Assembly: GCA_038045185.1 (NCBI GenBank)
Contig: JBBSYO010000007.1
Location: 18-64,017 of the forward strand
Source of the DNA: Nanobdellota archaeon
Lineage (GTDB): Archaea > Nanobdellota > Nanobdellia > Pacearchaeales > GW2011-AR1
Direction: 5' to 3'
Length of the DNA stretch: 64,000 nt
Shown: positions 9,001-12,000 of the stretch, piece by piece
Position numbering within the stretch: the first letter of the stretch is position 1
How the letters are laid out: each line of letters opens with the position of its first letter
Made by a program: the position numbers

Positions 9001-12000
9001 CGTTTATTTTTTTATCACCATTTGCAAGTTTAAGTACGCCAGATTCTGCCTTCACAAAAGGAAGTACTTTTCGATTGTTTTGGTAGTCTGTTATATTCAA
9101 TCTCAATTCGTTATCGCCAAATGGAAATATGCTTATGGACTCGCGTTGCGGATGATTGGCAGTCAAGGGAATATGCAACCCTCGGTATTCAAACTTAAAT
9201 GTGCCAAAGACTGGGTCGACAAAAGGCGAAGTTTGAGTGATGGCATTTACATCTGAATCTGCGGCGGCGACAAAAATGTTAAGATTAGTTAATTGAGCTA
9301 CGTTGCCATCAAAATCCACAAGTGTTCCTTCAATGAGTTCTTGATTGACGCCGCTCTTTACTCCAGAGCCATCCTCGAGCCATAATAATTCACTTGCGTT
9401 AACTAAATGTTTAAGCACGAGTTGAGCTGAGGTAGTTCGGTTGTCCACAATAAATTGCTTGTTGAAGAGTGTAATCTGCTTACCTATTGAAGCAGGATGT
9501 ATGAAGTTAATTGGCTGTGTAAAACTAATTGTCAGGATATAAACTTTATTTTCAGGAGATGTCCCTAATTTGATAGCATCAAGAGGGTCTTGGTCAGAAG
9601 TAGGTTGTTTTTCATAAGTTACTTGCGACAAAATACTTTGAGGCAGTCCGCCAACAATAATTGCTTGTTGATACGCAGTTCGGACGTTTCCGTTGAACAT
9701 GCCTCTGCGAAGCACTGTTGGCAATTCCCGTTCAGTGAGCGCAGATACCACTTCATTAATGGTGTCATTCAAATACAATTTTCTCGAGGTTGTAAAAAGA
9801 GGATAACTGACTGGTCTCTCAAAAGCAATTTTGGGAGGGATTGCACTGTTCGAGGTTATGTTGCACCCAGGACCAGAGCAAGACGGATTAAGCTGCGGTT
9901 CAGATTTCGAGAAACTAAACATAATTACTCCAACCATAAGAACAACGACTAAGACTATCCAGAATCCCCGCTTCATAAATAAATTAGGCTTAATTTGTTT
10001 ATATATCTTTCTTTCTCAATCTTTAGACAGGAGCCATTTCCAAACAGGCTTAACTTTTATTGCATAATGGCCAATCTTAAACTCGTCCTCTTGGTTATAT
10101 GTTAAAATAAGGCCCTCTTTTAATTTAAATCTTGTCATGGCTTCTTGCAAACCCTCAATTTCTCTGTCCTTATTGTCATCATTAAAGTCATAGCAAACTT
10201 GAATAGCTTTAGCAATTTCATGTCCGTTGCGAACAACAAAGTCACATTCTCTATTTTCTTTAAAGTAGTATATTTCATCTCTTTTATTTCTTCTAAGTGT
10301 AATAAAAACCAGATTTTCAAGCATTCTTCCCTTATCTTGTGAAAAAGAGGTTGAATTTTTGCTCGCCAATCCATTATCTATGCAATAAATTTTTTTAGGA
10401 AAGACTATTCTTTTTTTCATAGAATAATCAAATCGAGGTACAGTAAAAAGCAAATAACTATCTTCAAAGTAAGAAACAAAAGAAATAATACTATTTATTG
10501 ATCCTAACTTGAATAATTTTTTAAGAGCATTATAGGAGAATTCTTTTCCTATGTTAGTAATAAGATAAATGGCCATAGCATTTAGCGTAGCAACATTGCG
10601 CACCTTGTGGCGTGTTACAATATCTCGCGCTATGATATCTTTTAATAAGTCCTGTAATAAATTAGGAAAGTGGACGCGTAGATATTCTGGAAACCCCCCA
10701 TCAAATAAGTACCGATTAAAAGAGTCTATTCCTTGTTTTTCTTTAGTAAAATACAAGAATTCTTTATAAGAAAATGGAAATATTTCATAAGTAAGGTGAC
10801 GTCCGGTGAGGCGCGTTCCCAATTCTTTGCTTAATAGCGATGCATTTGAGCCAGTTATAATAACGTTCTTTTTGCTATCAACAAGACGACGCACAAAAAG
10901 CTCCCATTTAGGCACGTTTTGTATTTCATCAAAGAAATAATATTCTTGCTTGTCGTATAATTTCCTAAAAACCTCATCAAGTTTCTGAAAATCACTCACT
11001 TCAAAATTAATCACTCTTGGATCTTCAAAGTTAAAATAGTAAGGGCCTTTAACTTTTTTCATAAGTTGACGCATTAAAGTGCTTTTGCCACTTCTTCTCA
11101 CTCCTGATAAAATCAGCGCAAACTGAAGATTAAGCTTTAATTCCTTAGCTTTTTCTCGCTCTACACCGTACCCAAATTGCTTAAGCTCCTCTTTTTGCAG
11201 TTTCACTATTCCTATAAGATCTTCCTTGGTTATCATTTTCTTAGTTTCCATAGTTAAACCCCCTTTATAAAGGTTTTCATTAATAATGAAAACCTTTGTT
11301 CACTACCAATGAAAACCCTAACTTAAAATTATGTCGCGAACGTTCAAACCACACCCCTCAAAGATGCAAATCTTTGATGACCATCAAGAACCATAGTTCT
11401 TGAGGCTGTGAAATTCTTTGAATTTCGAGGCGCTCAGGAATCACAGATTCCTGACGTTTTATGGCTTCAGGAATGCAGGTGCCAGCATTCTTGATAGTGC
11501 TCAAAAACCAGTGGTTTTTGACATGTAGTGGCGCATCGTGTTTTTGATGCACAAACGTGTCTAAATTTATGAAATATCAAAAAGTCCTTGAGTTCACCAC
11601 ACCTTAAAAGGTGTGGTTTGTGTGGGACTCATCAAAGTCCATTGGACTTTGAATGCCATCAAGAATACAACTTTTTAGTATTCTTGAGGTTTGGATGCAG
11701 GAAAAATCTATGATTTTCTCCTGAACCGAAAATCTCTTGGATTTTCTTGTGCTCAAGGAACTACCACACCATAAATGGTGCGGTTTTAGTCAAGTTCCTT
11801 GACATAATATGTCTACAAATCCCTCGCCTGCAAAGTTCTCCGCCCGTTCAGCTTCGCGCGTTTCGCCGCATCATCAAGAAGCTTAAGCACTTTTTGATTG
11901 AGCGCTTCTGGAACATCACTTGAAACGCTCAATTCAGGCACAGCAGACTTTATCTTGCTTTTAACAATTAGCTCAATGTCTTCAGCCATGACTTAAAATG

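Follow-up and report, generated by a model that had tools for sequence, protein, structure and literature searches.

The 64,000-nt stretch of contig JBBSYO010000007.1 from a Nanobdellota archaeon (assembly GCA_038045185.1), referred to below as the window, carries about ten copies of a repeat unit made of two unlike hairpins joined by a conserved linker. The family to which these units belong is common among groundwater, lake and sediment Nanoarchaeota (DPANN archaea), whose genomes are small; it apparently has no earlier description and is very probably mobile. The explanation that we favour, with a probability of roughly 0.55, is that the units are miniature, non-coding, non-autonomous elements handled as a folded single strand by an enzyme acting in trans. 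No description of such repeats was found in the literature on DPANN or Nanoarchaeota repeats, on hairpins and miniature inverted-repeat transposable elements (MITEs), or on RAYT and PATE in archaea, and in Rfam nothing covers the units at gathering score, the only matches at E ≤ 10 being at chance level.

The window is archaeal by its rRNA genes, with a 23S gene at 32580-37809 (-), a 16S gene at 39523-42418 (-) and a tRNA-Ala between them, all identified with Rfam; its GC content is ~40%. The same DNA is present in contigs of the Hainich groundwater metagenome. Nanoarchaeota is the label of those named proteins that cluster with window proteins at 90% identity, and also of one listed homologue of SNase. 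Copies of the unit were collected through one exact 18-mer, GTTCCTTGAGCATCCAAA, which spans the junction of hairpin 1 and the linker and is found at two places in the window. In the metagenome collection at least 120 stretches matched it, against ~10 expected by chance; about 110 of 124 are true units and the other 13 lie in unrelated coding sequence. The matches come from Hainich groundwater and from many JGI metagenomes, whose samples are taken to be lake, sediment and groundwater (L-numbers such as L024 are our labels for related metagenome contigs or strains). Because the copies were retrieved through a single exact 18-mer, the diversity of the family is underestimated. In L141, whose SNase homologue is 74% identical, divergent hairpins of the same grammar occur at 16354-16479 and 18914-18986, one forming a TCAAGAAC/TCAGAATTC/TCAGGAAT series and the other a unit with domain 2 only, indicating that the family reaches well past the 18-mer. 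A covariance model (CM; R1) recovered 104 + 27 matches at E < 1e-3, with E-values down to 1e-28. Among GTDB representatives, a collection of similar size, a comparable 19-mer from hairpin D (CAAAGATGCAAATCTTTGA) had seven matches listed, all attributable to chance, including one in a Micrarchaeota metagenome-assembled genome (MAG) that falls in coding sequence. In the viral contigs of IMG/VR, GTTCCTTGAGCATCCAAA had 16 matches, every one in unrelated coding sequence, and the family was not found there.

An initial annotation of the window had reported short perfect hairpins starting with TCA and ending with TGA at seven loci, and hairpins are present at all seven. For stems of at least 8 bp the window has 23 such perfect TCA...TGA hairpins, nearly all of them at these loci, compared with a mean of 1.17 and a maximum of 5 in 100 approximately dinucleotide-preserving shuffles; TCA is also the commonest starting triplet among the 285 perfect hairpins of the window. 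The recurring unit proposed there, in which a hairpin A is followed by an RCRYCC linker, a hairpin B of the form AAA...TTT and TGAT, was found by the covariance model at six sites (58742, 61141, 11807(-), 37804, 37901 and 38410). Similarly, the segment 58797-58867 and the reverse complement of 11627-11700 do have GCATCCAAACC, TGGCATT and GATGA in common, while compensatory changes separate their stems, one pair in one case and three in the other. The idea of a dispersed two-hairpin family with conserved linkers and covarying stems is thus borne out, at several sites and in >100 metagenome copies, and the alignment and covariance model built from these copies have shared linkers and tags throughout and covariation above that of shuffles.

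All units follow one plan: (TT)ATG, hairpin 1, the linker GCATCC, hairpin 2 and GAT. Sizes run from ~60 nt for minimal units to 115-125 nt for canonical ones, the latter measuring 115 ± 5 nt between tag and tail; minimal versions of 56-63 nt consist of two plain hairpins, and expanded versions of 161-198 nt have extra hairpins. In canonical copies hairpin 1 is composed, in order, of TCAAGGAAC, TTGACnGAAAAC, a variable 7-bp stem with a TTTA loop, T-n and GTTCCTTGA, and domain 2 of AAAGCACGAGTGCC, TTTTCAAAC, a second variable stem with a TTTA loop and GGCAC-A-TCGTGCTTT; TGAT follows. The 5' tag is ATG in 90 of 90 copies, with ACG and GTG as variants elsewhere. The stem of hairpin 1 always starts with TC and ends with GA and covaries between them; after it come a bulged G and GCATCC or a variant, of which the G followed by CAT is constant. 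Hairpin 2 is closed by ATC...GAT and contains an invariant bulged A. The internal loops GAAAAC and CAAAC and the TTTA loops are likewise constant, and either hairpin may hold an inner module, AAAC-stem-TTTA-stem-GT. Units begin with ATGTC... and end with ...TTTTGAT, lack terminal inverted repeats and contain no gene. The tag could pair with the linker across the bulged G, in the combinations ATG:CAT, GTG:CAC and ACG:CGC, and the foot of domain 2 occurs as ATC:GAT or ACC:GGT; since the two pairings overlap by 2 nt, they cannot form together. The length of the loops ranges from 3 nt to >100 nt, nested hairpins included, which means that the spacing of the arms in duplex DNA is not conserved, whereas the hairpin is.

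To describe the covariation we used an alignment of 43 distinct canonical copies (A1), for which RNAalifold yields 34 pairs in four helices, 18 of them with compensatory double changes. Stem cells are paired in 97.2% of cases; the corresponding values are 83.8% for shuffled columns and 32-49% with partners displaced by 1-3 columns, and there are 206 double-change cells versus 59 in shuffles. Hairpin 1 and the linker are invariant in this alignment only because of how the copies were found; in the copies recovered with R1 and in window variants hairpin 1 covaries too. Its 5' stem occurs as TCAAGGAAC, TCGGGAACC, TCAAGATGC, TCGCGAATT, TCACGAACG and TCAGGAATGC, the paired arms being TCGGGAACC/GGTTCCCGA, TCAAGATGC/GCATCTTGA, TCGCGAATT/AATTCGCGA, TCACGAACG/CGTTCGTGA and TCAGGAATGC/GCATTCCTGA. 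Folded as single-stranded DNA, two large window copies reach z = -11.6 and -9.7. From covariation the initial annotation had concluded that selection acts on structure; the covariation is indeed strong, but by itself it is no proof of selection on RNA. Coordinated stem changes may come in part from template-switch repair rather than from selection. The loops of some copies are flipped from TTTA to TAAA, and flipped or inverted loops are a DNA-level behaviour of palindromes. A further case was seen at the hairpin 11467-11494, whose loop (TCAGGAATGC..GCATTCTTGA) is inverted or rewritten in the near-identical strains L134 and L135; this change is a small inversion bounded by the stem arms.

Mobility is indicated first by the distribution of copies. 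Within one lake sample set, seven loci that differ in their flanks hold an identical 115-nt unit core (TCAAGG...TTTTTT, tag and tail excluded), and the density of units is high both in L091 (five copies in 9.7 kb) and in the window (about ten in 64 kb). Filled and empty alleles provide further evidence. L024 is syntenic with window positions 21521-28680, with 78-93% identity across the aligned blocks, and has a 161-nt unit (ATG...TTTTTGAT) that fills an empty site of the window at 25144-25170 (AAATGTT-CTT-GTTAGAAAGC), as established by BLAST of the flanks and alignment; the insert extends from ATG to GAT, with no target duplication. In the second case, L169 and L170 have, within the linker (ACA|TCC) of the 61141 unit, a 61-nt double-hairpin insert that the window, L165, L166 and L173 do not have; the flanks are identical in filled and empty alleles. 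Several assemblies break within this same unit. Movement is also indicated by a mini-unit in a tRNA-Glu-like gene, by copies in rRNA spacers and by a deletion and a loss of synteny that coincide with a unit, all described below. The boundaries of units are precise to the nucleotide at both ends, and a test for flank identity of 3-6 nt gave no excess, hence no sign of a target-site duplication. Immediately to the left of units stands TT, its two positions holding in 96% and 85% of copies; the preference for T at -5 is weaker, and no clear 4-5-mer emerges. Nothing is conserved upstream of -5, no promoter-like motif included, so that the unit has no promoter of its own.

Most copies of the unit (86/91) lie outside long open reading frames (ORFs), and nine of 128 are within 50 nt of a tRNA gene, which is not clearly above what confinement to intergenic regions would give. 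Neighbouring units on a contig have the same orientation in 18 pairs and opposite orientation in four; each of the four exceptions, of which the window has two and L138 and L140 one apiece, includes the one minus-strand unit at 11807 or a copy of it in another strain. With respect to genes, by comparison, orientation is random. Coding DNA within 4 kb of units is divided between the unit's own strand (231 kb) and the other (213 kb), the gene upstream of a unit shares its strand as often as not (38 cases each), every one of the four gene arrangements is represented, and copies in rRNA spacers are antisense in the window and sense in L102. GC skew around the units has a weak bias, 55:33, which is confounded by gene strand. 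A role as a one-way terminator, raised in the initial annotation, is ruled out by this randomness.

The clusters had been described as local amplification into arrays. Judged from comparison with simpler copies, they are single units enlarged by nested insertion of smaller double-hairpin units into loops and linkers, rather than products of tandem amplification. That at 58742-58968 (+) is a canonical but expanded unit (CM 88.2 bits, E 1e-16) that was parsed against ~90 metagenome copies: TTATG is followed by hairpin 1 (58747-58796, with an inner variable hairpin), GCATCC and a domain 2 ending in GGCGCATCGTGTTTTTGAT, and its DNA fold has -59.7 kcal/mol (z = -11.6). Two nested inserts of ~55 nt, each a double hairpin, lie in domain 2. 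The first, which we call B+C (58806-58865 (+); CC, TCAAGAATTC..GAATTCTTGA, TGGCATT, CAAAAACT..AGTTTTTG, ATGA), splits the 5' strand of the domain, where canonical copies without insert read GCATCCAAAACACGAG; inserts of this type are found also in L014, L027, L054, L093, L101 and L110. The second, D+E (58891-58941 (+)), as comparison with uninserted copies indicates, separates the TTTTAA loop of domain 2's inner hairpin from its 5' arm; this site is occupied in L019, L024, L037, L084, L093 and L017 as well. The mini-units follow the grammar of the larger units, consisting of a tag, a hairpin, a linker resembling GCAC(C/T)A and a second hairpin, and they also occur alone in L076, L079, L085, L103, L141 and the window (39155-39219).

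The cluster at 11331-11812 consists of two units tail to tail, one on each strand, with their 3' ends facing and nested inserts in both. The canonical unit at 11575-11812 (-), 8 nt downstream of the stop of a 58-aa gene, gives CM scores of 72.4 and 30.4 bits and a DNA fold of z = -9.7; its linker is interrupted by a 53-nt double-hairpin insert (11696-11749), and a mini-unit of the B+C type occupies 11629-11689. Its partner at 11331-11549 (+) is internally deleted relative to L138: TTATG TCGCGAACG is joined to TTCAAACCACACC, followed by nested hairpins and GGCGCATCGTGTTTTTGAT, so that after the deletion nothing separates hairpin 1 from the inner module of its domain 2. The undeleted copy in L138 has other flanking genes, and synteny with the window ends exactly at hairpin 1. 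At 61141-61252 (+), a canonical unit (CM 81.7 bits) has the hairpin 1 stem TCACGAACG/CGTTCGTGA and the linker ACATCC.

Three smaller copies lie in the rRNA operon. At 37804-37875 (+) there is a minimal unit in which both domains are simple hairpins (CM 62.4 bits), antisense to the operon and directly upstream of the 5' end of the 23S gene; at 37901-37956 (+) a minimal variant reads ATG TCACGAAC..GTTCGTGA ACACCC AAAAAACGA..TCGTTTTTT (CM 27.4 bits, E 8e-4); and at 38410-38477 (+) another reads ACG TCAGGAATGC..GCATTCCTGA GCGCCC AAAGGTCT..AGACTTTT (CM 19.6 bits, E 0.03). The view that copies in both rRNA spacers sit inside the processing stems is correct for the 23S side, where 37804-37956 falls between a strand of the processing stem (37959-37990) and the mature 23S 5' end, but not for the 16S side, where the unit at 38410-38477 lies between tRNA-Ala and the 3' strand of the 16S processing stem (38477-38499), abutting it from outside. 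The copy reported inside a tRNA-like gene is a solo mini-unit at 39155-39219 (+), comprising GTG, a hairpin, GCACCA and a hairpin (CM 22.8 bits); it interrupts a tRNA-Glu(CTC)-like gene at ~39147-39284 (+), which ARAGORN calls only once 39155-39219 is removed and which is itself within an ~870-nt insertion of the 16S gene. A degenerate unit at 15062-15183 (-) (CM 20.7 bits, E 0.02) has kept hairpin 1 (15133-15178) intact while the remainder has decayed; it belongs to a 1.6-kb strain-specific cassette that L002 and L003 lack. Finally, the covariance model identified two units of a second family with the same two-domain plan and a different sequence. The one at 27783-27876 (+) reads TTATT AGAATTTTT..AAAAATTCT AAT TAGAGAATCGT..ACGATTCTCT TTAT (CM 20.7 bits); the one at 46313-46446 (+) is a longer form with an inner hairpin in domain 2 (CM 24.9 bits, E 0.0025).

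How might the units move? Co-orientation, variable loops and conserved extrahelical purines, namely the G and the A that persist in otherwise covarying stems, suggest to us a folded single strand recognised by a protein, and from the co-orientation of neighbours we would place this event at the replication fork, where IS200/IS605 elements act and where REPs have been proposed to act (PMC6006769). In the mechanism that we envisage, a structure-specific enzyme acting in trans, of the HUH type or another, would recognise the unit in its folded single-stranded form, most likely as single-stranded DNA at the fork, move it and join it 3' of TT. Movement specifically as single-stranded DNA by such an enzyme is our best guess and is put forward tentatively. 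Plausible side effects include recombination breakpoints, breaks in assemblies and co-transcription of units in rRNA precursors.

A number of observations weigh against this reading. The empty site facing the L024 unit has three extra nucleotides (CTT), and filled and empty allele pairs number only two. Co-orientation could equally be explained by local copying. Stem mismatches are balanced between G.U-type (27) and A.C-type (21), so that the mismatches favour neither strand as the active one and neither RNA nor DNA. The unpaired motifs TTGACAGAAAAC and CAAAC and the TTTA loops have been kept while stems were turned over, which argues for a real constraint; a repeat that is selfish and passive would not need so much conservation, which could point to a role in the host. 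Lastly, no mobilising enzyme was found in the DNA analysed. The window encodes no recognisable transposase, and a Pfam scan of ORFs neighbouring units, covering 150 of 191 with the 41 longest left out, had no transposase family among its 25 most frequent families and no enriched mobility family. A cognate transposase, suggested in the initial annotation, was also sought by tblastn and at loci of Y1 genes and was not confirmed. With IS608, ISDra2 and the RAYT of E. coli as queries, tblastn against all the DNA collected matched only L020, where a 189-aa Y1 transposase of an ordinary IS200 lies 260 nt from a unit. Homologues of this ORF were examined at three independent loci (L143, L144-L147 and L148), and no unit was detected within 3 kb of the Y1 genes in L143, L144/L145/L146/L147 and L148 at E ≤ 1. 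The Y1/HUH transposases found lie in ordinary IS200 elements with unrelated end hairpins of their own and are not flanked by units: the left ends read TATAAAGCnTCGATTTC followed by a hairpin, CACTAGTC.. or CCCAGTTT.., without resemblance to units. The left end of TATAAAGCnTCGATTTC plus hairpin is common to the IS200-type Y1 genes at L020:107-676, L143:3001-3471, L144:3001-3456 and L148:3001-3459. Most homologues are on contigs of ~1 kb, as expected of multicopy insertion sequences. Y1 enzymes exist in the phylum, K07491 (IS200/RAYT-type) being listed as the only transposase KO with strict hits among 256 Nanobdellota proteomes (preprint 10.64898/2026.05.13.725050), and their bearing on the units is circumstantial.

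Conserved unpaired nucleotides and bulges, together with strong compensatory change, would also be expected if the unit were a structured RNA motif with a host function, transcribed alone or together with its neighbours and serving, for example, as a platform to which proteins bind, as an insulator or in processing or stability, with copies spread by duplication and kept by selection. Such a motif would account for the T-run at the 3' end, for copies being almost only intergenic, and for units in the rRNA spacers of two organisms (the window and L102). We nevertheless consider it unlikely: orientation to flanking genes is random (38:38), the rRNA-operon copies are antisense in one of these organisms and sense in the other, there is no promoter-like motif upstream, no excess of G.U over A.C and no matching Rfam family, some copies have flipped loops, and sites are polymorphic among close relatives.

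Movement via an RNA copy that is reverse-transcribed and then integrated at replication forks would explain the same absence of target-site duplications and terminal inverted repeats, the co-orientation of copies and the T-rich 3' end. This route was proposed for the mitochondrial double-hairpin elements (DHEs) of Allomyces because these lack target duplications (PMC2800124), an analogy that favours it here, and the rRNA operon that harbours units is full of introns, including a weak group-II-like match. On the other hand, neither the window nor the list of most frequent Pfam families for the 150 scanned neighbour ORFs includes a reverse transcriptase, there is neither poly-A nor another hallmark of retro-insertion, and both boundaries are precise to the nucleotide, all of which make an RNA intermediate quite unlikely.

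Alternatively, the units could be sites in cruciform or hairpin DNA that are bound or cleaved by a host protein serving chromosome topology, recombination or replication polarity; they would then have multiplied by recombination or repair and not by transposition. Orientation common to neighbours and independent of genes, conserved bulged bases and the coincidence of units with a deletion and a synteny breakpoint are compatible with this, as is a gene for the Holliday-junction resolvase Hjc in the window, although Hjc genes are ubiquitous in archaea. However, copy content varies between close strains, the nesting of units in one another and the interruption of a tRNA-like gene give a selfish impression, and sequence subfamilies are very diverse within one genome; we regard such a role as improbable. 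That the hairpins are generic AT-rich terminators or chance palindromes without family relationship, as an AT-rich genome and T-runs at the ends of some of them might suggest, is already refuted by the ~20-fold excess over shuffles, by the linkers and tags common to >100 copies, by the CM E-values down to 1e-28 and by orientations unrelated to the upstream gene.

Returning to units as mobile elements handled as folded strands, the initial annotation had compared them in concept with REP/BIME elements or MITEs while recognising no known family, and both parts of this assessment hold. Like REP, BIME and REPIN sequences, the units are short, abundant, intergenic and hairpin-forming, make mosaic composites with conserved linkers, fall into several subfamilies per genome, have a tag at the 5' foot of the hairpin (GTAG in REPs, ATG here) and lack terminal inverted repeats and target-site duplications; high copy number and a mostly intergenic location, by which REPs are judged, are found here too. 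Folded single-stranded DNA is presumed to be the form in which REPs are handled (PMC6006769, PMC2817692). A REP, however, is a single imperfect palindrome of 20-40 nt with GT[AG]G 0-2 nt 5' of the hairpin foot (PMC6006769), whereas units comprise two unlike hairpins in direct order over 60-125 nt and their tag is not GT[AG]G. REPINs and BIMEs are typically paired in inverted or alternating order, while units are co-oriented 18:4. The units are archaeal, class-2 TnpA-REP having been reported in bacteria only, and among the contigs examined there is no unit-flanked single-copy Y1 gene (REPtron).

IS200/IS605 elements and their gene-less derivatives of the PATE type are similar in having a hairpin at each end and no terminal inverted repeats or target-site duplication. 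They insert beside a short fixed flank, 3' of a specific tetra- or pentanucleotide, and a strand or orientation bias would be expected from their targeting of the lagging strand; the units have TT to their left and co-oriented neighbours. Y1 transposases of the IS200 type do occur in these archaea. The two kinds differ in that the IS200 copies found have unrelated ends and no association with units, that the flank signal of units is only TT, and that unit hairpins are at the very ends rather than subterminal with guide and cleavage sites. Membership in the REP/RAYT or IS200-derived families is thus not supported. Classical MITEs, such as Correia, RUP and the SM elements of Sulfolobus, have terminal inverted repeats matching a DDE transposon and target-site duplications. 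The units share with them small size, lack of coding capacity, multiple copies, intergenic location, nesting and the ability to cause rearrangements, but have neither terminal inverted repeats nor target-site duplications.

A descriptive match exists with the DHEs of Allomyces and chytrid mitochondrial DNA and the repetitive hairpin-forming elements (RHEs) of sponge mitochondrial DNA, which also have two adjacent hairpins and conserved motifs and are located in intergenic regions, rRNA genes or spacers, and introns. DHEs differ between close relatives and have no flanking duplications (PMC2800124). All descriptive features of these elements are found in the units, yet the class is descriptive and organellar, so that this is a resemblance and not membership; the hosts are eukaryotic and no shared sequence would be expected. 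Systematic nesting of mini-units and co-orientation are features of the units that cannot be cited for DHEs.

Other candidate identities were rejected on specific grounds. Integron attC sites would have an R''/L''...L'/R' hairpin and, at the ends of cassettes, RYYYAAC/GTTRRRY cores, which are on neither strand of the unit ends (no IntI search was made), and units are not regularly tied to single-ORF cassettes, except for the spacing in L091; for attC, dif-like and other duplex-binding sites alike, an arm spacing varying from 3 to >100 nt is inappropriate. C/D or H/ACA small RNAs are excluded by the absence of boxes, by variable parts that are self-paired stems and by lack of Rfam support; for a ribozyme or an IS605-orfB/HEARO RNA there is no Rfam match near gathering score. 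A mini-ORF (ATG...TAA in the loop) would be shifted in frame between copies by the 1-nt variation in internal-loop length, and a promoter-carrying small RNA gene conflicts with the absence of a conserved motif upstream of -5. A bulge-helix-bulge intron, considered for the tRNA insert, does not apply in general, as flanks are unrelated between copies.

It is conceivable, if rather doubtful, that these units make up a class of mobile DNA, new and archaeal, in which self-similar double-hairpin elements of ~50, 60 and 120 nt form a hierarchy, are moved as folded single strands by an enzyme other than an IS200-type Y1, and land preferentially in single-stranded loops and linkers of related units and, in intergenic DNA, 3' of TT. 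If this were true, Nanoarchaeota would host an abundant and active structure-based mobilome with a catalytic partner beyond the known Y1, although their tiny genomes are thought to carry almost no transposons, and DPANN or Nanoarchaeota genomes, at ~1 Mb, are regarded as streamlined and poor in transposable elements. Occurring about once per 6 kb, strain-variable, self-nesting, and found at assembly breaks and rearrangements, the family would be a main source of genome plasticity in its hosts and a practical cause of fragmented MAGs and misassembled rRNA operons. Its many natural variants of one fold with invariant bulged bases offer a defined substrate for finding the binding or mobilising protein. 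The family would also extend the lifestyle of REP-like and mitochondrial double-hairpin elements to archaea, with a bearing on the question of a repeated origin of such elements wherever hairpins in single-stranded DNA can be processed.

Several neighbouring features of the window were recorded in passing. The 1.6-kb cassette is bracketed by a 191-bp direct repeat (14167-14357 and 15794-15984, 97.9% identical) and contains small ORFs of 124 and 90 aa, the hairpin 15133-15178 and a 135-aa ORF; L002 and L003 have a single 191-bp copy and no cassette, which looks like an integration/excision polymorphism at the 3' end of the acylphosphatase gene. Two AAA_14/DUF4143 ATPase genes (10016-11251 and 46531-47727) each adjoin a hairpin unit. 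Beyond the unit shared with the window, L138 carries tRNA-Asp and a CMAS methyltransferase, so the ATPase region at 10016-11251 is strain-variable.

The rRNA genes are heavily interrupted: 32580-37809 extends over 5.2 kb compared with a 2987-nt model, and 39523-42418 over 2.9 kb compared with a 1478-nt model. ORFs inside them encode LAGLIDADG_1 (35310-35840) and PIN_2 (40791-41219) domains, and a group I intron match is at 40207-40369. The true 3' end of the 16S gene (the reverse complement of GGATCACCTCCT) is at ~38535, split off by the ~870-nt insertion near position 1400 (window 38535-39522), in which a weak group-II D1-D4 Rfam match (39036-39121 (-)) accompanies the interrupted tRNA-Glu-like gene on the opposite strand. 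Rfam also reports a tRNA at 40063-40133 (+) with 47.9 bits inside the 16S region on the opposite strand, where ARAGORN finds none. Directly upstream of the 16S 5' end, a 571-aa protein (42801-44516 (+)) combines several HTH domains of transposase type (HTH_28, HTH_Tnp_ISL3, HTH_23, HTH_Tnp_1) with an HNH_repeat ('homing endonuclease associated repeat'), and no catalytic domain was recognised. A free-standing LAGLIDADG_3 ORF (25708-26478) lies beside tRNA-Phe (25621-25692) in the interval 25503-26519; between the BLAST blocks there, the window has ~1 kb and L024 256 nt, which leaves too little room for the 771-nt ORF. In element-bearing contigs, tRNA genes of 118-152 nt were found at L067:11545-11696, L079:12178-12323 and L041:1148-1265, for which ARAGORN predicts long introns of 81 nt (L067) and 45 nt (L041).

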